A DNA stretch of 38,221 nucleotides from assembly GCF_002087085.1 (NCBI RefSeq), contig NZ_MWQY01000016.1:62001-100221 (forward strand), in the 5' to 3' direction. The position numbers and the translations under genes are program-made. Below are positions 26,815 through 35,464 of this stretch, one piece after another (within the stretch, counting starts at the first letter, position 1; each line of letters opens with the position of its first letter). Below the pieces are notes generated by a model. The model did not search any database, was not told the DNA's origin, and worked only from the letters and a program-made list of their open reading frames with translations.

Positions 26815-27318
26815 CTAAAAAAGCTTCAGATATGCCGCCATGTAATCGGGAAGGTCCGCAGGTTTTCGGGCCGAAACGATATTGCGGTCGGTGACGGCAC
26901 TTTTATCCACCCATTCCGCTCCCGCATGGATCAGATCATCCTTGATACCCGGGGTCGAGGTCATTGTATAACCCTTCACTATGTCAGCCGAGGCGAGTAC
27001 CCATCCGGCATGGCAGATATGACCCACCGGTTTCCCTGCCTTGAAAATCTCCCGGGTCAAGCCTAATACAGCTTCATAGCGCCGGAGTTTGTCCGGTGCC
27101 CATCCCCCGGGGACCAGCAGGCCGTCGTAGTCGGCGGCCTTCAGATCCTCGAAGGAGACCTCTGATGTAGCGGGTACGCCGTGTTTTCCGTGGTAGACCT
27201 TTCCCGCCTCCTTGCCGGCTATGTCGACCTGGAAGCCCGCCTCCCTGCAGCGCAGTACGGGATACCAGAGCTCGAGATCTTCAAACTGTTCATCTATAAA
27301 AGCCAGAATTTTCTTCAT
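26815..27318 (-). CDS. PfpI/DJ-1 family (type 1 glutamine amidotransferase-like) protein
   Basis: FEDLEL, VPGGWAPD and ICHAG nucleophile elbow; AGGAG SD before ATG 27318. Confidence 0.92.
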   Translation of the reverse strand: MKKILAFIDEQFEDLELWYPVLRCREAGFQVDIAGKEAGKVYHGKHGVPATSEVSFEDLKAADYDGLLVPGGWAPDKLRRYEAVLGLTREIFKAGKPVGHICHAGWVLASADIVKGYTMTSTPGIKDDLIHAGAEWVDKSAVTDRNIVSARKPADLPDYMAAYLKLF

Positions 27319-27528
27319 AGTTGTCTCCTGTATTGTGTTCGCTGGGTAATAAGGTACGGATCTCATGGCAATCAGTCAAAAATTCCCGGCTTTCAGTGGT
27401 CTGTTCTGTTTTATTACGTGATTCCGGAAACCGGGCAAATCTTGCCTGGCGGGACATTCTATCTGGAAAGAGGCTGCCGTTTTGAACACGTCTTGCAGCA
27501 GCTGGATCAAGAATTATAAAATCGTTCC

Positions 27529-28494
27529 ATGAAAGTGGAATATCTCAGGCGTTTGAACCGGGTCCTCGAGTATATTGACTCTCACCTGGGGGAGGATCTG
27601 GACCACGAAACCCTGGCAGGGGAAGCTGCCTTTTCCAGGTTCCACTTTGCCCGGATTTTTTCCGCAGCCCTCGGTGAATCTCTGGGAGCCTATATTCAGC
27701 GGTTGCGCCTGGAACGGGCTGCAGGGTATATCTCTGGACGTCCGGATATGACGATAACCCGTATCGGTATTGAATCAGGGTTTTCCTCTTCTGCAGTATT
27801 CTCCAGGGCTTTTCGTGATCATTTCGGCATGAGTCCCAGCGAATGGCGGGCCGGTGGTGACGCTGAATACAGCAGGAATTGCAAACTGCAGAGCAAGCGA
27901 TATCATCCCATGAGCATATATTGCGAAGCAACCACGGTGGAATCCTCGTATTCTGTGTATACACAACAGAAATGGAGGGTATCTATGAAAACACCGACAA
28001 AAAATCTCGATTACACTGTGCGGGTAGATGAACAGCAGGAAAAGACAGTGGCCTATGTCCGACACACCGGTCCCTATGCCGGTAACGAGGAACTCTTTCA
28101 CGGTCTGTTCTCCCGACTGTTGAAATGGGCCGTCCCGCGGCAGCTTTTCGAGGCTGGCAAAACGGAGATGCTTACTATCTATCATGATTCTCCGGAGATA
28201 ACCGAAGAGGAGAAGCTCAGGATAAGTGTCTGTATTACCGTTCCTCCGGATACGGAGGTCTCCGGAGATATAGGTAAAACCGCCATTCCCGCCGGGCGCT
28301 ATGCGGTTGGAGAGTTTCTTATATCCGCTGATGAGTACGGTGATGCCTGGAACAGCCTCTTTGCCGGGTGGCTCCCGGAAAGCGGGTATCAGTGCAGTGA
28401 GGGGCCCTGCTACGAGGTTTATCTGAACGATCCGGAAGAACACCCGGAAGGCAGGCACCGGGTGGCGATCCACATCCCGGTCGCCCCGCTGTAA
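27529..28494 (+). CDS. AraC-family regulator with C-terminal GyrI-like effector domain
   Basis: N-terminal double HTH (SRFHFARIF, RLRLERAA, GFSSSAVFSRAFRDHFGMSPSEWR); GyrI domain (AYVRHTGPY, WLPESGY, YEVYLNDP). Confidence 0.93.
   Translation: MKVEYLRRLNRVLEYIDSHLGEDLDHETLAGEAAFSRFHFARIFSAALGESLGAYIQRLRLERAAGYISGRPDMTITRIGIESGFSSSAVFSRAFRDHFGMSPSEWRAGGDAEYSRNCKLQSKRYHPMSIYCEATTVESSYSVYTQQKWRVSMKTPTKNLDYTVRVDEQQEKTVAYVRHTGPYAGNEELFHGLFSRLLKWAVPRQLFEAGKTEMLTIYHDSPEITEEEKLRISVCITVPPDTEVSGDIGKTAIPAGRYAVGEFLISADEYGDAWNSLFAGWLPESGYQCSEGPCYEVYLNDPEEHPEGRHRVAIHIPVAPL
27870..27987 (+). promoter_or_regulatory. putative intragenic AraC-activated promoter with SD and in-frame ATG for a GyrI-only isoform
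   Basis: AGCA at 27871, 27892 and 27913 (21-bp period); TATTCT at 27949-27954; GGAGG at 27974-27978; in-frame ATG at 27985. Confidence 0.6.
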
Positions 28495-28540
28495 GCTTGA
28501 AGAACTGACAGAGAAAGAATCAATCTTCACCCCGCACGGT

Positions 28541-28563
28541 CCCTGCAGTCCCCGGCTGCAGGG
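28541..28563. terminator. GC-rich hairpin downstream of the AraC-GyrI gene
   Basis: CCCTGCAG-7 nt-CTGCAGGG; weak U-tract. Confidence 0.4.
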
Positions 28564-28702
28564 GCTTCCTGTGCTCTCTTAAATCGTGCGGACCTGCCGG
28601 CTCTGTTCCCGTTCCGTGGACAGAAGGCGGAAAAACTGTAAAAAGAGACGATTTCCCGGGTTTTTTGGGGAGGCGACTTGACGGGATCAATAATTTACCG
28701 TA

Positions 28703-28728
28703 TTGGTTTAACCATAAGGTTAAACCAA
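28703..28728. promoter_or_regulatory. TetR operator palindrome
   Basis: Perfect inverted repeat TTGGTTTAACC-ATAA-GGTTAAACCAA, 13 nt upstream of the tetR ATG and downstream of TTGACG (28678-28683). Confidence 0.8.
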
Positions 28729-28741
28729 GAGGTTTTACAAG

Positions 28742-29392
28742 ATGACCAATGATATCGATCGAGGCACAGAAGAGCAGATCCTGGCCGCCGCCTACCGGGT
28801 GATCATCCGCCGCGGCAAGTCCGGTACCCGCATGCAGGAGATCGCCGACGAGGCGGGGGTGAACAAGGCTCTGCTGCACTACTACTTCCGCTCCAAGGAC
28901 AGGATCTACGAGGCGGTTCTAAGGAAGGTCCTCTCCTCGCTCCTGAAGTCCATGCTGCAGAGCATCGATTTCTCCATGCCCATCCGAGAGGTCCTCGAGG
29001 CCTTTATCCGGGGGCACATCGGCGCGCTGAAGAGCAATCCGCAGGTTTTCCAGTTCTTCATGGCCGAGATGTGGACCAACCGGGAGGAGGTGATTCCGGT
29101 ATTCGTCGGGCTGTTAACCGAGAACCGCGAGATCATCACGACCAGGTTCTTTGCCCGGCTGCAGCAGGCGATGGACGACGGCGAAATCAGGCGGGTGAAT
29201 CCCTTCCATTTTCTAATGAACATCATCAGTCTCGACGTCTTCTATTTTGTCGCTTCGCCGCTGTTTTTTGCTGTTCTGAATGTGCCGGAAAAAGAACAGG
29301 AAGCGATGACCGGGCAGCGGGCCGATCAGGTGGTGGAGTTCATCTGGGAATCGATTCGTCCAAGGGAGGAATCAGGATGCACAGAATCTTGA
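28742..29392 (+). CDS. TetR/AcrR family transcriptional regulator
   Basis: GTRMQEIADEAGVNKALLHYYFRSKD HTH. Confidence 0.95.
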   Translation: MTNDIDRGTEEQILAAAYRVIIRRGKSGTRMQEIADEAGVNKALLHYYFRSKDRIYEAVLRKVLSSLLKSMLQSIDFSMPIREVLEAFIRGHIGALKSNPQVFQFFMAEMWTNREEVIPVFVGLLTENREIITTRFFARLQQAMDDGEIRRVNPFHFLMNIISLDVFYFVASPLFFAVLNVPEKEQEAMTGQRADQVVEFIWESIRPREESGCTES

Positions 29393-30690
29393 AGTTAGCG
29401 ACGCTGCTGGCGCTTATATCCACGCCCCTGGGGGCCCGGGAATATTCCATGACCCAGCTGTTTGAGCTGGCATTGGAGGAGGACAGTCGGCTCGCCCGGA
29501 TCGAGGCCGGTGTGGCCGCCGCCGAAACCGTCGTGGCCGATGCCGGCGCCGCCTTTCAGCCGGATCTGAGCGCCGGATTTCGCGTTTCATACGTATCCGA
29601 GCTGCCGGAGATGGAGCAGCCCAAACCCGGCGGCGGTACGACCACTGTCGAGGCGGGGGTTAAGGATACCTATGCGGCTAATCTCACCGCCCGGCAGCTG
29701 ATATTCGCCGGATTCACACGGCGCTACGGGCTGGCGGCGGCGGAGAACCGGCTGGCCGAAGTACGCTTTCAGAAAAGTATGCGCGAGGATGCGCTGCGCT
29801 TCAGTCTGCTCCAGGCGGCCTACGGCTATTCCCTGGCCGATCTTTCGGTGGAGTCCCTGGAAGCCAGTCTGGCCCGGCTGGAACTGAATCGCCGCCGGGT
29901 GGAGTCGTTCTTCTCTCAGGGCTTCGCCTCGGAGCTGGACCTGCTCGAGATCGACGCCTCCATCGCCGAGCTCAACCTGCAGCTGCGGCAGCAGCAGGCG
30001 GACCGCCGCGCGGCTCTGATCAGCCTCAGAAGTCTCAGCGGCGCGGAGGACCTCGACGCGCTAGCCGTGGAGGAGGCCTATCTCGCGCTGCCGGACGTGG
30101 AGGCCGTCGATATCGAAGGAGCTGACCTGGCGTCCAACGCCGACTACCGGGCTACCGATTATACACGGCAGGCCCGCGAGTTGGAAACGGAGATTCATCG
30201 CGGTGACTACTATCCCCGGCTTTCCGCTTTCGGCAGCTTCAACTACGGCCGGCCGGGAGCCAATTTCTTCGCCGACGAGTGGCAGTTTTACTACCAGGGC
30301 GGTGTGGAGGTCTCAATGAATCTCTGGGACGGCGGCCGGCGGGGCAACGCCCTCGAGCGTGACCGGGCCAGGCTGGAGCAGCTGGCGGCCGAGCGGGAGG
30401 AGCTCTTTACGAATCTGCTGGCCCGGGGGCGGCAGACCGGGGAGTCCCTGCAGTCGGCGGCCGAACAGCTGACCACCGCCCGCAGTCTGCTCGAGAACAA
30501 GCAGCGCAAGTACGAACTGATACAGCAGCTCTGGGACGCCGGCGAACAGAGCACCCTCGAGGTGCTGGAGGCCGAACAGGAGCTTACCGCCGCGGACATC
30601 AGGGCCAAGGGGCTGGAAATCCGGCTGCTGTCGCTCTATCAGGATTACCTGCTGCTGATCAATCGTCCCCTGTGGAGGAATACCAAATGA
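29377..30690 (+). CDS. TolC-family outer membrane efflux protein
   Basis: Start at ATG 29377 after GGAGG gives signal peptide MHRILKLATLLALISTPLGA; two OEP repeats (FQPDL, YYPRLS, NLWDGG, STLEVLEAE). Confidence 0.88.
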   Translation: MHRILKLATLLALISTPLGAREYSMTQLFELALEEDSRLARIEAGVAAAETVVADAGAAFQPDLSAGFRVSYVSELPEMEQPKPGGGTTTVEAGVKDTYAANLTARQLIFAGFTRRYGLAAAENRLAEVRFQKSMREDALRFSLLQAAYGYSLADLSVESLEASLARLELNRRRVESFFSQGFASELDLLEIDASIAELNLQLRQQQADRRAALISLRSLSGAEDLDALAVEEAYLALPDVEAVDIEGADLASNADYRATDYTRQARELETEIHRGDYYPRLSAFGSFNYGRPGANFFADEWQFYYQGGVEVSMNLWDGGRRGNALERDRARLEQLAAEREELFTNLLARGRQTGESLQSAAEQLTTARSLLENKQRKYELIQQLWDAGEQSTLEVLEAEQELTAADIRAKGLEIRLLSLYQDYLLLINRPLWRNTK

Positions 30691-31592
30691 GTATGCCAAG
30701 GAGTACCGGGATGAACCGGAACAGGATAATTCGAAACGGAATTTTTACAGCGCTCGTGCTGCTGCTGGCAGCCTGCGGTGCGGGCGATGGCGAGCGCAGC
30801 TTTACCGGGCAGGTGGAAGGCCGGGTCTACAGCGTCTCCTCGCCGGTAAGCGACCGGCTCCTGGAGCTCAGCGTCTGGGAAGGCGACCGACTGGCCGAGG
30901 GGCAGACAGTGGGGCGCATCGATACGGCCGCGCTGGAACTTCAGCGCAAGTCGCTGATCGCCGGGCGGGATCAGATCGGGCTGCAGCTCCAGGAGCTCAC
31001 CCTCACTACCGCGCAGGTCAAGGATACCCGCGACTACTATGCGACCACCTACCGCCGCAATCTGGAGCTCCTGAAGGAACAGGCGGTCTCGGATCAGAAG
31101 GTGCGGGATCTGAAACTGAACGCGGACAAGTGGGAGCGGGAGCTGACGACCCTGCGTATCAAAGAACAGTCCCTCAAGCGGCAGCAGGACGAGATCGGCT
31201 ACAAGCTCGAGGAACTCGATCTGATGATCAGCAAGGCCACTCTTACCAGTCCCGCCGCAGGCTATGTGGATCAGGTCTATTTCGAGAAAGGGGAGTTCGT
31301 TCCCGCGCTGCGTCCGGTGGTGGAGCTGGTCAGTCTCGAATATGTCTGGTGTTATCTCTATCTTGGCGAGTCCGGTATCGCGCAGATCAGTCCCGGTCAG
31401 GAGATGACCGCCCGCCTGGGGGAAAACACCTTCCGCGCCCGGGTCGAGCATATCAACTCCAGCGCCGAGTTCACCCCCAGGGAGGTACTCACCCCCGAGA
31501 ACCGCGAGGCCCTGGTCTACGCGGTACGGGTCGGGATCGAGAATCCCGACGGAATCCTGAAGATAGGCATGCCTGTCGTGCTGGAGTGGTAA
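30687..31592 (+). CDS. HlyD/YbhG-like membrane fusion protein, probable lipoprotein
   Basis: LLAAC lipobox; lipoyl halves around a coiled coil; AEFTPREVLTPENREALVYAV...LKIGMP; ATGA overlap with tolC (alternative start 30711). Confidence 0.9.
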   Translation: MSMPRSTGMNRNRIIRNGIFTALVLLLAACGAGDGERSFTGQVEGRVYSVSSPVSDRLLELSVWEGDRLAEGQTVGRIDTAALELQRKSLIAGRDQIGLQLQELTLTTAQVKDTRDYYATTYRRNLELLKEQAVSDQKVRDLKLNADKWERELTTLRIKEQSLKRQQDEIGYKLEELDLMISKATLTSPAAGYVDQVYFEKGEFVPALRPVVELVSLEYVWCYLYLGESGIAQISPGQEMTARLGENTFRARVEHINSSAEFTPREVLTPENREALVYAVRVGIENPDGILKIGMPVVLEW

Positions 31593-31599
31593 AGGTAGA

Positions 31600-32505
31600 A
31601 TGAACGCCGCGAAATGTATTGAAGCAGAAGCGATCAGCAAGCGCTACGGCGAGATTCGGGCCCTCGAGGGCGTCGACATCCATGCGGCCGCCGGGGAGAT
31701 CACCGGCCTTATCGGACCCGACGGAGCCGGGAAATCGAGCTTCATGCGCATCGTCCTCGGTCTGCTTGAAAGTGATGGCGGCGAACTGAAGCTCTTCGGC
31801 GAGACCCCGGAGCGGGGCCGACGCGGCGGAATCGGCTATATGCCCGAGGTTTTCTCCCTCTATACGGATCTGACCGTGGAGGAGAACATGCGCTTCTCCT
31901 TCAGGATTCACGGCGGCAGGCCTGCGGAGTACACGGCCAGGAGCGAGCGGCTCTACACCTTCAACCGCCTCTCCGATTTCAAGGCCGCCCGGGCCGGCAC
32001 GCTCTCGGGGGGTATGAAGCAGAAACTGGCCCTCTCCTGCGCCCTGATGCAGGAGCCTCGTCTGCTGGTGCTCGATGAACCGACCACCGGCGTCGACCCC
32101 TTGAGCCGCCGGGAGTTCTGGCGGATGCTGAGCGAACTGAAAAGAGAGGGCATCGGCATCCTGGTTTCGACCCCCTACATGGAAGAGGCCCTGCAGTGCG
32201 ACCGGATCTACCTGATGAACGAGGGCCGCATCCTGAACGCCGGAGCTCCCCGGGAGCTGATCGACGGTTTCGACGGCCGTATCATCGAGTTCGAGGATTC
32301 CGAGCTGGCGCCTCAGGATCTGCGCCGGGAGCTGGCCGCCGCCTGGTCCGGGCGGCCGGTCTATCTGTCGGGGCGCAGCGTGCACCTGGTGCTGCCCGCC
32401 GCGGCAGGAGACGCTGCGGCCGACCTTCCGACTCGCTCATCAGGGACGAGCCGTGAGATCGAACCTGACCTGGAAGACATCTTTCTGGCGGGGATACTCA
32501 GATGA
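31600..32505 (+). CDS. ABC transporter ATP-binding protein (like the first NBD of YbhF)
   Basis: GPDGAGKS, LSGGMKQKL and LDEPTTGVDP. Confidence 0.93.
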   Translation: MNAAKCIEAEAISKRYGEIRALEGVDIHAAAGEITGLIGPDGAGKSSFMRIVLGLLESDGGELKLFGETPERGRRGGIGYMPEVFSLYTDLTVEENMRFSFRIHGGRPAEYTARSERLYTFNRLSDFKAARAGTLSGGMKQKLALSCALMQEPRLLVLDEPTTGVDPLSRREFWRMLSELKREGIGILVSTPYMEEALQCDRIYLMNEGRILNAGAPRELIDGFDGRIIEFEDSELAPQDLRRELAAAWSGRPVYLSGRSVHLVLPAAAGDAAADLPTRSSGTSREIEPDLEDIFLAGILR

Positions 32506-33245
32506 CGAGCGATTCATCCATGATGATTTCAATTCAAGGCCTGAGCCGCCGTTTCGGCGCCTTCACCGCGGTGGACGACATCTCCTTCGAGGTCGCCCCC
32601 GGGGAGGTCTTCGGTTTTCTGGGAGCCAACGGCGCCGGCAAGACCACGACCATCCGCATGATGTGCGGGCTGCTGAGCCCCAGCGAGGGCGACATCCTGA
32701 TCGACGGGGTCTCGGTCTCCGCCGATCCCGAGCAGGTCAAGCGGCGCCTGGGCTACATGTCCCAGAAGTTCTCCCTCTACGGCGACCTCTCGCCGGAACA
32801 GAACATCGACTTCTTCGGGGCGGTCTACGGCGTCGACCCCGAGCGCCTGGAGGCGGAGAAGAGGAGAATCCGCGCCCAGCTGGGGGGGGCTCCCGGCAGC
32901 GGCCGCGCCGGGAAGCTGCCCCTGGGTTTCAAGCAGCGGCTGGGGCTAACCTGCGCCCTGCTGCACGAACCGCCGGTCATCTTCCTGGACGAACCGACCT
33001 CGGGCGTCGATCCCCTGGGGCGCCGGGAGTTCTGGGAAGAGATCTACGACCTCTCGTCCGCCGGGCGCACCGTCCTGGTGACGACCCACTTCATGGACGA
33101 GGCCGAATACTGTCACCGCATCGCCATCATGAGCCAGGGGCGCCTGATCGACCTCGACAGCCCCGCGGCCATCAAGCGCAAATACGGATCCGATACCCTC
33201 AACGAGGCCTTTATCCGGGCCGTCGAAAGCGACCGGGAGGAGTAG
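32502..33245 (+). CDS. ABC transporter ATP-binding protein (like the second NBD of YbhF)
   Basis: GANGAGKT, degenerate signature LPLGFKQRL, LDEPTSGVDP and TTHFMDEAE. Confidence 0.93.
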   Translation: MTSDSSMMISIQGLSRRFGAFTAVDDISFEVAPGEVFGFLGANGAGKTTTIRMMCGLLSPSEGDILIDGVSVSADPEQVKRRLGYMSQKFSLYGDLSPEQNIDFFGAVYGVDPERLEAEKRRIRAQLGGAPGSGRAGKLPLGFKQRLGLTCALLHEPPVIFLDEPTSGVDPLGRREFWEEIYDLSSAGRTVLVTTHFMDEAEYCHRIAIMSQGRLIDLDSPAAIKRKYGSDTLNEAFIRAVESDREE

Positions 33246-33246
33246 C

Positions 33247-34317
33247 ATGGGACTCTACGGCATTATCCTGAAAGAGTTCAAACATATTGTGCGGGACTAC
33301 CGCACGCTGATGATCCTCTTCATCCTGCCGGTGCTGATGCTGGTGCTCTTCGGCTACGCGATGACCCTGGAGATTCCGAATATCAGGCTGGCGGTCGAGG
33401 ACCTGGACAATTCGGCGGCCTCCCGGGAGCTGATCGCAGGCTTCCGGGGCTCGGAATTCTTTACACTCCCCGAGGCCGGGGGACTCTCCGGGCGGGAGCT
33501 CTTCCGCCGCCGCGTCGCCGACGCGCTTCTGACCATCCCCGGGGATTACGGCCGGGGTGGGGCGGTCGACCTGCAGATCGACGCCTCCGACTCGAACCGG
33601 GCGCTGATCGTGCGGCAGTACATCGATGCCGTGGTAGAGCGCGCCTCGGACGCGCGGACCCGCAGACCGCCGATCGTCGCCGTCCCGGCCTTCCTCTACA
33701 ACCGGCAGCTCGACAGCGCCTTCTTTTTCGTCCCTGCCCTGACAGCGCTGATCATCATCATGGTCACCGCCCTGCTGACGAGTCTGACCATCACCCGGGA
33801 GAAGGAGCAGGGCACCTTCGATCTGATCAAACTGAGTCCCGTGCACGCCTACGAGGTCATCATCGGCAAGGTGGTACCCTACCTGCTGCTGTCGCTCGTT
33901 ATCGGCACCCTGATCGTGCTCTGCGGGGTGCTGATGTTCGGCGTCCCCATGAGGGGCAGTATTCCGGCCATGCTCTTCTACCTGATCCTCTACTGTCTGA
34001 CCGGCCTCTCCTTCGGGATTCTGATCTCCACGGTGGCGGCCAGCCAGCAGACGGCCATGCTGCTCTCCCTGATCGGAACCCTGCTGCCGACCCTCTTTCT
34101 CTCCGGCTTCATCTTTCCCCTCGAGTCGATGCCCTCCCTTTTGCGGGCGATAAGCTGGATCGTGCCGGCCAGGTATTTTCTGATCATCATCCGGGGACTG
34201 ATGCTCAAGGGCAACACTCAGCGGGAGCTGATCTTCCCCATCCTGATGCTCTCCGCCTTCAGCGCCTTCTTCCTGCTGGTGGCGATACGCCGCTTCAAGG
34301 CCTATCTCGAGGGCTGA
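33247..34317 (+). CDS. ABC-2 type permease (YbhS-like)
   Basis: KEFKHIVRDYRTL, ITREKEQGT and FLSGFIFPLESMP. Confidence 0.92.
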   Translation: MGLYGIILKEFKHIVRDYRTLMILFILPVLMLVLFGYAMTLEIPNIRLAVEDLDNSAASRELIAGFRGSEFFTLPEAGGLSGRELFRRRVADALLTIPGDYGRGGAVDLQIDASDSNRALIVRQYIDAVVERASDARTRRPPIVAVPAFLYNRQLDSAFFFVPALTALIIIMVTALLTSLTITREKEQGTFDLIKLSPVHAYEVIIGKVVPYLLLSLVIGTLIVLCGVLMFGVPMRGSIPAMLFYLILYCLTGLSFGILISTVAASQQTAMLLSLIGTLLPTLFLSGFIFPLESMPSLLRAISWIVPARYFLIIIRGLMLKGNTQRELIFPILMLSAFSAFFLLVAIRRFKAYLEG

Positions 34318-34351
34318 TTCAGACGGGGAACCGGAATTTAAGGAGACGACG

Positions 34352-35464
34352 ATGCGAACCCTGATTGCGATGGTAAAAAAAGAGATCCTCCAGCTGCGGG
34401 CCGATACCTTCTATCTGCGCTTTCTTTTAATCGCGCCCCTCTTCCAGCTGATCGTGCTCGGCTTCGCGCTGACCATCGAGACCACCAACGTGCCGACCCT
34501 CATCTGCGATCTCGACAGGACCGCGCTCAGCCGCGAGTTCGTGCGCAGCGTCAGCACCAACGAGCGCTTCAACGTCATCGGCACGGTGGAGGAGTACGAG
34601 GAACTCGGCGACGCCCTTCAGCGCTGGCAGGCCAGCATCGGCATCTACATTCCCCCCGGTTTCGGCCGCGACCTGAAGCGCGACGCCTCCGCCGAACTGC
34701 AGGTCCTGATCGATGCGGTGGACGGCAACAAGGCCCTGACCGCCTACGGCTACCTGCAGCAGATCGCCGCCGAACAGGGCCTCCGCCTGGCCGCCGTGCC
34801 CCTCGACGCCGGCGGCGCCCCCGGCCCGCGCCTGGTCTACCACTACCTCTTTAACCCCGAGCTCAAGAACGCCGCCTTCATGGTTCCCGGCATCGTCGTG
34901 GTTATCGTCACCATCATCACTCTGATGATCGGCGCCATGAACCTGGTGCGGGAGAAGGAGGTCGGCACCCTCGAACAGCTGATGGTCACCCCCATCAACC
35001 GGAGCCAGCTTATCCTCGGCAAGCTGATTCCGTTTCTGGTCTACGCCTTCATCGAGGTGGCGGTACTGCTGAAGGTCGCCGAGCTGGTTTTCGGTCTGCA
35101 CCTGGCCGGAAGCCTGTTGAGCCTCTACCTGGCGCTGCTGCTCTACCTCTTCTCGACCCTCGGTCTGGGGCTGCTCGTCTCCTCGGCGGCGGGCACCCAG
35201 CAGCAGGCCCTCTTTATCGCCTGGTTTTTCATGATCTTCATGATCCTGCTTTCGGGCTTCTTCATTCCCATCCGGAACATGCCCCGCTGGCTGCAGTGGC
35301 TGACGATGCTGAACCCCCTGCGCTTCATGATGACCATCGTGCGGGAGATCTATCTCAAGGCCACGCCGCTGAAGCTCCTGGCCGACCAGCTGCTCCCCTT
35401 GAGCGCCCTGGGACTGGTGATCTTCGGCACCAGCATCTTCACCTTCCAGAAAAAGAGCGGCTGA
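34352..35464 (+). CDS. ABC-2 type permease (YbhR-like)
   Basis: KEILQLR, FNPEL, VREKEVGTLEQLMVTP and LSGFFIPIRNMP. Confidence 0.92.
   Translation: MRTLIAMVKKEILQLRADTFYLRFLLIAPLFQLIVLGFALTIETTNVPTLICDLDRTALSREFVRSVSTNERFNVIGTVEEYEELGDALQRWQASIGIYIPPGFGRDLKRDASAELQVLIDAVDGNKALTAYGYLQQIAAEQGLRLAAVPLDAGGAPGPRLVYHYLFNPELKNAAFMVPGIVVVIVTIITLMIGAMNLVREKEVGTLEQLMVTPINRSQLILGKLIPFLVYAFIEVAVLLKVAELVFGLHLAGSLLSLYLALLLYLFSTLGLGLLVSSAAGTQQQALFIAWFFMIFMILLSGFFIPIRNMPRWLQWLTMLNPLRFMMTIVREIYLKATPLKLLADQLLPLSALGLVIFGTSIFTFQKKSG

Follow-up and report, generated by a model that had tools for sequence, protein, structure and literature searches.

The window analyzed here, i.e. the whole stretch of 38,221 nucleotides (nt) from contig NZ_MWQY01000016.1 (assembly GCF_002087085.1, positions 62,001 to 100,221 of the forward strand), contains at positions 27529–28494 of its plus strand a single open frame of 321 amino acids that encodes a regulator of the AraC-GyrI type, and the DNA encoding the linker of this protein carries a putative promoter cassette together with an internal translation start. 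In the long product (27529–28494, plus strand), Pfam searches identified HTH_18 at residues 29–108 and a GyrI-like domain at residues 164–318 (E = 7.7 × 10−36); two AraC-type helix-turn-helix (HTH) motifs are present (HTH_18, E = 1.1 × 10−21; HTH_AraC, E = 4.3 × 10−16), and these AraC-type and GyrI-like domains are the only ones in the protein, with no MerR-type or TipAS-type domain detected by Pfam. Among the matches in the PDB, the nearest solved structure is that of Salmonella STM3175 (7r3w, E = 4.5 × 10−24), the C-terminal half matches SbmC/GyrI (1jyh, E = 3.7 × 10−15), and the N-terminal half matches Rob, RamA, SoxS and MarA (E of about 10−10 to 2 × 10−8). The gene is the sole one of its kind in this genome, where no second full-length AraC-GyrI match was found, and its close database relatives carry names from Marispirochaeta and other Spirochaetia. 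An ATG at 27985 (Met153), in frame with the long product, opens a short-product frame of 169 amino acids (27985–28494, plus strand) that consists of the GyrI-like domain only; the domain is complete (residues 12–166, profile positions 3–154 of 155, E = 1.3 × 10−36), and both frames end with the stop codon at 28492–28494.

The whole cassette is held in roughly 115 base pairs (bp) of linker-coding DNA, all on the plus strand. It begins with three AGCA-led units, starting at 27871, 27892 and 27913, i.e. exactly 21 bp apart, which were scored with a weight matrix trained without the window and its two closest relatives. Unit 1 (27871–27891, AGCAG..GCAAA, 13.0 bits), a predicted regulator-binding site, comprises codons Ser115 to Gln121 and encodes SRNCKLQ; unit 2 (27892–27912, AGCAA..ATCAT, 7.4 bits), a candidate site, comprises codons Ser122 to Met128 and encodes SKRYHPM; and unit 3 (27913–27933, AGCAT..GCGAAG, 7.8 bits), the promoter-proximal candidate site, starts with Ser129 and encodes SIYCEAT. 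All three are within the top 0.06% of plus-strand positions in the window. A putative −10 element, TATTCT (27949–27954), starts at a distance of 36 nt from the A that opens the last AGC, with the hexamer lying 19 bp beyond the last box, and the spacer in between contains a candidate anti-Shine-Dalgarno motif, CCTC (27944–27947), which only the long mRNA would include. Transcription is predicted to start at A27961, which is preceded by a T; relative to this position, unit 3 is centred at about −41.5 and covers the place of a −35 hexamer. A Shine-Dalgarno (SD) sequence, GGAGG (27974–27978, codons Trp149 and Arg150), precedes the ATG of Met153 by a gap of 6 nt, which makes for a predicted leader of 24 nt. 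The original prediction had read the three units, the hexamer and the SD-ATG combination as an intragenic, self-activated promoter for a GyrI-only protein, and all of these features were recovered, at these distances, when the sequence was read again. In one genome alone, such a pattern is weak evidence: three GCA at 21-nt spacing followed by TANNNT occur three times in 4.2 Mb (both strands).

To go beyond a single genome, homologous DNA was collected from the genomes of relatives, from a collection of species-representative genomes (37 loci) and from metagenomes, the latter queried with a 42-sequence alignment, with the best 80 of 571 confirmed relatives used. The 147 loci yielded 117 stop-to-stop frames at E ≤ 10−30, or 113 once identical DNA was removed; 95 of these, with a phmmer score of at least 200, are referred to here as the family, and the 18 rows that were dropped belong to remote homologues or to a second frame of the same locus. 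At the serines leading the units, which were predicted to be encoded by AGC rather than TCN, AGC was found in 36 of 36 homologous genes for Ser115, in 61 of 62 for Ser122 and in 48 of 48 for Ser129 (145 of 146 altogether), whereas the share of AGC at the other serine columns is 0–58%, with one exception of 82% (Ser285). Where a residue other than serine leads a unit, it is arginine (CGC) or glycine (GGC); all these swaps keep a codon of the form NGC, and the conserved entity is therefore NGC followed by AA. The consensus of the 21-bp unit is A-G-C-A-A-n5-R-Y-(C/A)-A-A, and the spacing of 21 nt between units is exact in all 61 and all 85 of the aligned pairs, as had been anticipated. Each unit is thus bipartite, with a GCAA (A site) followed at a distance of one helical turn by [C/A]AA (B site). 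In the B site, the wobble A of the AA pair is kept in 70–81 of 87–91 genes, with the residue varying between lysine, glutamine and glutamate.

The downstream elements show the same kind of conservation, in agreement with the claim that the −10, the SD and the start would prove conserved. In 79 of 91 genes, a TANNNT hexamer follows the opening base of unit 3 at exactly 36 nt, compared to at most 8 genes for any other offset between 15 and 69; the last T of this hexamer, a wobble base, is kept in 81 of 91 genes across codons for I, F, D, T, N, S, H, V, P and L. The column 7 nt past the hexamer is a purine in 74 of 91 genes and the preceding one a pyrimidine in 77 of 91, and the predicted start in the window was therefore placed at A27961. 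At the place of a −35 element with a 17-bp spacer, the family consensus is AAG[A/C]NN, with no match to a −35. When the commonest third base in each column was compared with the expectation from the encoded residues under the pooled codon usage of the family, the ten columns with the greatest excess among 319 were 133, 142, 129, 122, 119, 115, 148, 126, 150 and 116 (z-scores from 12.8 down to 6.8, with a median of 0.8 over the columns), all of them in the linker, at positions of the boxes, the −10 and the SD.

With simple alignment-free rules (two or more GCA at 21 nt for the boxes), boxes, −10 and SD-start occur together in 67 of 108 homologues and none of them occurs in 14; the remaining 27 are in mixed states (7, 11, 5 and 4), some of which represent detection errors of these rules. 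The linkers of the 14 feature-less homologues are 33–192 nt long, mostly less than 160, vs. about 186–195 nt. Pairwise identity among the 67 genes with the full set of features has a median of 47% and a minimum of 23%, and these genes are spread over 31 of 55 clusters at 60% identity; at such low identity, silent sites should be largely randomized. Judging by these alignments, the linker codons in the 95 AraC-GyrI genes are constrained at the DNA level, in a pattern beyond chance.

The internal start is the best conserved part of this arrangement. When an in-frame start codon preceded by an SD core of at least 5 nt was required, such a start was found within aligned positions 148–160 in 66 of the 95 genes, exactly at position 153 in 58 of them, compared to at most 4 genes at any other interior position and 6 at the column of the annotated N-terminus; with a 4-nt core, the count is 71 of 95. 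At the protein level, the motif W-R-[VI]-x-M-K directly precedes the GyrI domain in most of 120 aligned database homologues, and its first five residues correspond, in DNA, to TGG AGG NNN NNN ATG. The codon for Arg150 is AGG in 60 of the 72 genes that have arginine there, vs. 167 of 1103 (15%) in the pooled other arginine columns and 3–24% at ten other conserved ones. Genes with a residue other than Trp149 have CGG AGG, AGG AGG or GGG AGG as the codon pair, such that the residue changes and the GGAGG bases are kept, and where Val replaces Met153, its codon is GTG. A role of the WRVSM stretch in the protein cannot account for these codon choices.

Many database entries of 160–170 amino acids (among P0121–P0238), some of them named 'AraC family transcriptional regulator', start exactly at the equivalent of Met153. 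The 90 short predicted proteins (150–185 amino acids) were not counted as evidence because they come mostly from contigs of 0.5–3 kb, where a gene caller would take the internal start of a gene cut by the contig end; the strong internal SD seems to be picked by gene callers in such truncated genes, inflating the apparent number of stand-alone GyrI proteins. One GyrI-only look-alike among the collected loci, L026, was rejected as a truncated remnant.

A further element of the linker, the candidate anti-SD, was examined by motif counts and by folding prediction. In 33 of 69 genes, CCTC or CTCC is present in the stretch that separates unit 3 from the −10 (+22 to +36), compared to 6% of the windows of equal length elsewhere in the same genes. 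The predicted probability of the SD being unpaired is 0.22 in the context of the long mRNA and 0.54 in the transcript from the predicted start, the SD being more open in the short transcript in 54 of the 69 genes and less open in 6. Shuffling the upstream part raised the value in the long context to 0.42, the real value being lower in 57 of 69 genes (Wilcoxon p = 3 × 10−8, uncorrected for relatedness), and the predicted pairing partners of the SD peak at +28 to +32. In the window itself, where the CCTC bases also encode Ser-Ser, the predicted effect is small (0.17 vs. 0.22 unpaired). These predictions point to an internal start that is accessible on the short mRNA and shut off on the long one, and make CCTC(C) a candidate for transcript-specific control of translation.

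The cassette is not confined to coding sequences. In four metagenome loci that form two pairs of close relatives (L129 with L143, and L098 with L099), the AraC-GyrI gene has no cassette inside its short linker; it is separated by 134–221 nt from a downstream, stand-alone gene for a GyrI-only protein (about 158 amino acids), and the spacer between the two genes contains three boxes 21 nt apart, a TANNNT exactly 36 nt past the third one, an SD and the ATG. The first bases of the boxes are at −115/−94/−73, −119/−98/−77 or −118/−97/−76 from this ATG; another locus, L144, is arranged as L143. This layout suggests that one-gene and two-gene forms interconvert by fusion or duplication. By reading, no CCTC or CTCC was found at the corresponding place in the intergenic cassettes of L129, L098 and L099, which would be in keeping with a role confined to cassettes that are translated, although this is weak evidence. 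The gene behind the cassette is of another kind in two cases. In L166 (1501–2078), a two-box cassette 9 nt past the frame end of an AraC-GyrI gene that lacks an internal one is followed by a gene for a protein of 162 amino acids that resembles TsaA/TrmO (YaeB) by eye alone; and in L132 (1399–1973), the same kind of gene (about 160 amino acids, TsaA/TrmO-like by eye), with its cassette, is convergent to an AraC-GyrI gene, again one without an internal cassette.

A search of 301 genomes of the class by motif only, the pattern being two strict boxes plus TANNNT, gave 21 hits vs. 0 for the reversed control. Fourteen of the 21 are inside AraC-GyrI genes and one, in L166, is directly after such a gene. 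In the genome of the window, no second tandem pair of units was found. The strict single unit occurs 925 times in this genome and the single-box matrix yields 232 sites above 13 bits, with no outstanding box site in the gene's own upstream region, such that single boxes are uninformative in this respect.

Taken together, nucleotide-level conservation and geometry are evident, from sequence comparison, for every element of the cassette, as is the presence of an intergenic cassette beside such regulators. The original interpretation is supported by every computational test available, and the cassette very probably combines a regulator-dependent promoter with a ribosome-binding site, from which the GyrI-only product of 169 amino acids is made, with one gene probably making both a sensor-regulator and a separate ligand-binding protein. 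In such a scheme, the 321-amino-acid regulator would be expressed from an upstream promoter and the short protein from the internal one. The co-location of gene and cassette suggests that the long product itself is most likely the regulator of the internal promoter. By analogy with what is known of MarA, SoxS, Rob and AraC, its two-HTH domain would occupy each box, and at the proximal box RNA polymerase would be recruited in class II fashion once the GyrI domain has bound its ligand. The abundant short protein may then bind the same ligand, resulting in sequestration or feedback, as YgiV/STM3175 and TipA/AlbA would lead one to expect. As a whole, the proposal that the linker DNA is a complete activator-dependent cassette, that the gene has two products, that the long one most likely acts as the regulator and that the short one binds the same ligand appears likely to us, with about the confidence one would place in a well-founded expectation.

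Several observations weigh against this proposal. The start, the short isoform and the binding of the boxes stand as predictions. Each of the window's boxes is off the family consensus at one key base (GCAG, ..CAT and GCAT), two of the three reach only the 7.4 and 7.8 bits given above, and the strict pattern misses the genome and genus of the window because each of their boxes deviates at one base. Six of the 21 motif-only hits have no AraC-GyrI gene within 1.5 kb, although two of these are simple GCAACAA repeats and one is in AT-rich DNA. With 12.7 bits, the single-box matrix lacks the power to pick out further targets in the genome, and the conservation of the recognition helices is the same whether or not a homologue has the cassette, so that they provide no tie between the boxes and the AraC-GyrI protein. 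A generic promoter scan of 27200–28800 gave one site vs. 1.2 expected, and it lies elsewhere than the cassette; a promoter that lacks a −35 would be expected to escape such a scan, but the miss lends no support either. The site it did report, TTGCAA-16-TATCAT at 27879–27906, was set aside as being at chance level. In the AlphaFold model (see below), WRVSMKT forms a beta strand (148–154; predicted local distance difference test score, pLDDT, about 70–77), and the conservation of Trp, Arg and Met could partly be due to the protein. Finally, the homologues share ancestry and were selected for their similarity, the metagenome ones as the best 80 of 571 matches, and the counts are not independent events.

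Among the alternatives, the one that survives best is that only translation starts internally, on the full-length mRNA and in the manner of TipAS, with the boxes and TANNNT put to another use (e.g. autoregulation by a roadblock) or with no promoter present. It would account for the SD-ATG being the best conserved part, it has a precedent in TipA, whose isoforms arise from two start codons according to the excerpted text of PMC7762955, and the internal transcription start at 27961 is itself a prediction. However, translation alone does not call for a TANNNT at a constant distance of 36 nt from the third box (79 of 91 genes), with its wobble T under selection, nor for the same boxes, −10 and SD in intergenic DNA ahead of separate genes; moreover, folding predictions have the internal SD largely base-paired in the long mRNA (0.22 vs. 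0.54 in the short one and 0.42 after shuffling). We therefore regard this alternative as unlikely.

We give still less credence to the possibility that the internal promoter is real but not self-regulated, being either controlled by another protein of the AraC/MarA type or constitutive. The genome has 18 further matches to the AraC-type DNA-binding part from which such a protein could come, and the likeness of the recognition helices with and without the cassette is compatible with it. Against control by another protein, the cassette lies in or beside an AraC-GyrI gene across phyla, in 15 of 21 motif-only hits or 15 of 19 when simple repeats are left out, and the cassettes of L129, L143, L098, L099 and L132 are also beside AraC-GyrI genes; against constitutive activity, there is no −35 match at the 17-bp position.

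That the conserved bases act in RNA, as a repeated protein-binding or structural mRNA element that tunes the internal start, seems very improbable. Conservation in a transcribed region cannot tell a role in DNA from one in RNA, and pairing between CCUC(C) and the SD is indeed predicted, but the period of 21 (two helical turns), the sub-sites one turn apart, the class II position of TANNNT and the pyrimidine-purine pair are the geometry of DNA and of a promoter, and the intergenic boxes are upstream of the predicted transcription start of the downstream gene. Least probable of all, to the point of being negligible, is constraint at the protein level or chance: the linker is a heptad-like, Ser-Lys-rich segment with a 7-residue protein repeat and a Trp-Arg-x-x-Met motif that may be structural, and a helix (128–134) and strands (135–140 and 148–154) are modelled in parts of it (AlphaFold model from the 42-sequence alignment, mean pLDDT 88.7, with 69, 66, 81, 71 and 77 for the successive blocks of 111–160), but codons are fixed where the residue is free, residues vary where the bases are fixed (AGC/CGC/GGC, NAA, NNT, AGG), and the intergenic copies of the cassette are untranslated.

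An extension of the proposed promoter concerns its origin and control. The linker could be a formerly intergenic promoter, with its three boxes, −10, anti-SD and SD, that was captured in frame when a regulator gene fused with a GyrI gene and has remained doubly coding across several phyla, the ligand-bound long product activating the promoter in its own gene and the anti-SD on the long mRNA limiting the sponge to the induced short transcript. We put this forward tentatively, as a conjecture somewhat more apt to fail than to hold; if true, it would amount to a one-gene, ligand-inducible sense-and-sequester circuit with transcript-specific translation.

An internal promoter of this kind would be a clear and widely conserved case of bacterial dual coding, with operator boxes, a −10 and a ribosome-binding site in the codons of a linker, and it would dictate the choice of codons and even of residues (Ser/Arg/Gly and Lys/Gln/Glu). 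It would extend the one-gene logic of TipA and AlbA to the large AraC-GyrI class, which includes neutralizers of gyrase-targeting antibiotics, and would serve as a warning that annotations as 'AraC family regulator' hide a second product. A testable set of operator, promoter and regulator is thereby supplied ready-made, and scans of synonymous sites can reveal promoters within genes.

The start of the long product differs from the internal one. The ATG at 27529 has no SD sequence; a TAAAAT hexamer (TANNNT) at 27517–27522 ends 6 nt 5′ of it, and TTGCAG is found at 27493–27498. In close spirochaete relatives, a −10-like hexamer precedes the start by 12–15 nt (offsets −15, −13 or −12 in 17 of 70 genes), and an SD core of at least 4 nt at the N-terminal start was found in only 17 of 70 genes with a placeable start. 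Given the missing SD and the −10-like hexamer close to the ATG, the regulator may be translated from a leaderless or nearly leaderless mRNA, unlike the internal start with its strong SD. In sequencing data, the RNA-library run X2 yielded a single contig of 257 nt (28179–28435), inside the GyrI part, and run X1, which is probably DNA, a contig at 28314–28556; both are uninformative on start, strand and level. The upstream neighbour is a divergent gene of the DJ-1/PfpI family (26815–27366, minus strand); downstream (28742–35464, plus strand) are a TetR-family gene and then genes for an outer-membrane efflux protein, an HlyD-type fusion protein, two ABC ATPases and two ABC-2 permeases, i.e. a neighbourhood of the xenobiotic-response type.

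In comparison with known systems, the distances of the cassette are identical to those of araI1-araI2 in P_BAD. The original prediction had cited 21 bp between these half-sites and 36 nt to the −10, and both values hold on the E. coli K-12 araBAD region, where 21 nt separate the AGC of araI1 from that of araI2 and the latter is 36 nt from TACTGT, which we take to be the −10. The boxes and their spacing fit the monomeric class II arrangement of MarA, SoxS and Rob at least as well as araI. In micF, as described in passages of PMC9178005 on the structure of Rob with RNA polymerase, the 20-bp Rob box has a GCAC A site and a CAAA B site that overlaps the −35, with Rob contacting −47G and −45A; in unit 3 of the window, a G and an A are likewise at −47 and −45 from the predicted start, and the AA of the B site is at −35/−34. 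The family boxes (GCAA ... R-Y-C/A-A-A) have the same spacing as this box and are similar but not identical to it. Class II MarA promoters have forward boxes that overlap the −35 and are centred between −36 and −55 (PMC12052159, in the portion available), and unit 3, relative to the predicted start, shares the orientation, the overlap and the position of the centre. There are three tandem boxes here, compared to one in the MarA type and two in AraC, and the upstream ones are direct repeats, whereas upstream (class I) boxes of the MarA type are described in the same excerpts as being in reverse orientation. Unlike in the MarA and AraC promoters, the element also encodes a protein linker, and the product under its predicted control is a portion of what the regulator gene itself encodes.

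A second, shorter in-frame product that an AraC-family gene makes from a transcript of its own is likewise known from Shigella, where VirF21, next to VirF30, presumably keeps the DNA-binding part. The short ORF considered here differs in that it starts after the HTH domain, behind a predicted leader of 24 nt with GGAGG, whereas VirF21 is translated from a leaderless mRNA (PMC5101355, as far as its excerpts go).

STM3175 of Salmonella has the same architecture of an AraC-type part and a GyrI-like domain, YgiV of E. coli is a stand-alone GyrI protein, and in the available passages of PMC10414762 and PMC11721078 YgiV/STM3175 are reported to bind and neutralize albicidin and cystobactamids. Long (288 amino acids) and short (160 amino acids) variants are described there as existing in databases, but as variants of different species, and the linker of STM3175 is short (about 10 unresolved residues); no internal start, isoform or promoter is mentioned in these passages. 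E. coli K-12 ygiV was considered as an internal start of a longer frame and rejected, being a separate gene for 160 amino acids 52 bp after ygiW. At this gene (L148, 3233–3260, minus strand), AGGGAGG is located just 5′ of the ATG and is preceded by a hairpin-like inverted repeat. Changes conferring cystobactamid resistance are reported at −4, −9 and −13 in the excerpts of PMC11721078; they would be in the ribosome-binding region of ygiV if numbered from this K-12 ATG. More generally, no description of such an internal promoter or isoform in an AraC-GyrI gene was found in the literature as covered here, with subscription journals outside this coverage, and in the text that was searchable 'GyrI' did not occur together with an internal or alternative start codon or an internal or intragenic promoter.

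The closest parallel in logic is offered by TipA of Streptomyces and AlbA of Klebsiella, where one gene gives rise to a full sensor-regulator and, in frame, to its ligand-binding domain alone, as predicted here. In TipAL/TipAS and AlbA/AlbAS, the regulator boosts its own expression and the short form binds the drug, according to the available parts of PMC7762955 and bioRxiv 10.64898/2026.09.21.753095. The domains are different, with a MerR DNA-binding part and a TipAS effector domain in those proteins vs. an AraC/MarA-type part and a GyrI-like domain here, and so is the predicted route to the short form, namely two start codons of one gene in tipA (PMC7762955, in excerpt) as opposed to a separate predicted promoter with operator boxes inside the coding sequence. 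Thus, by its domains, the gene is not a member of the TipA/AlbA type, but it probably works like one.

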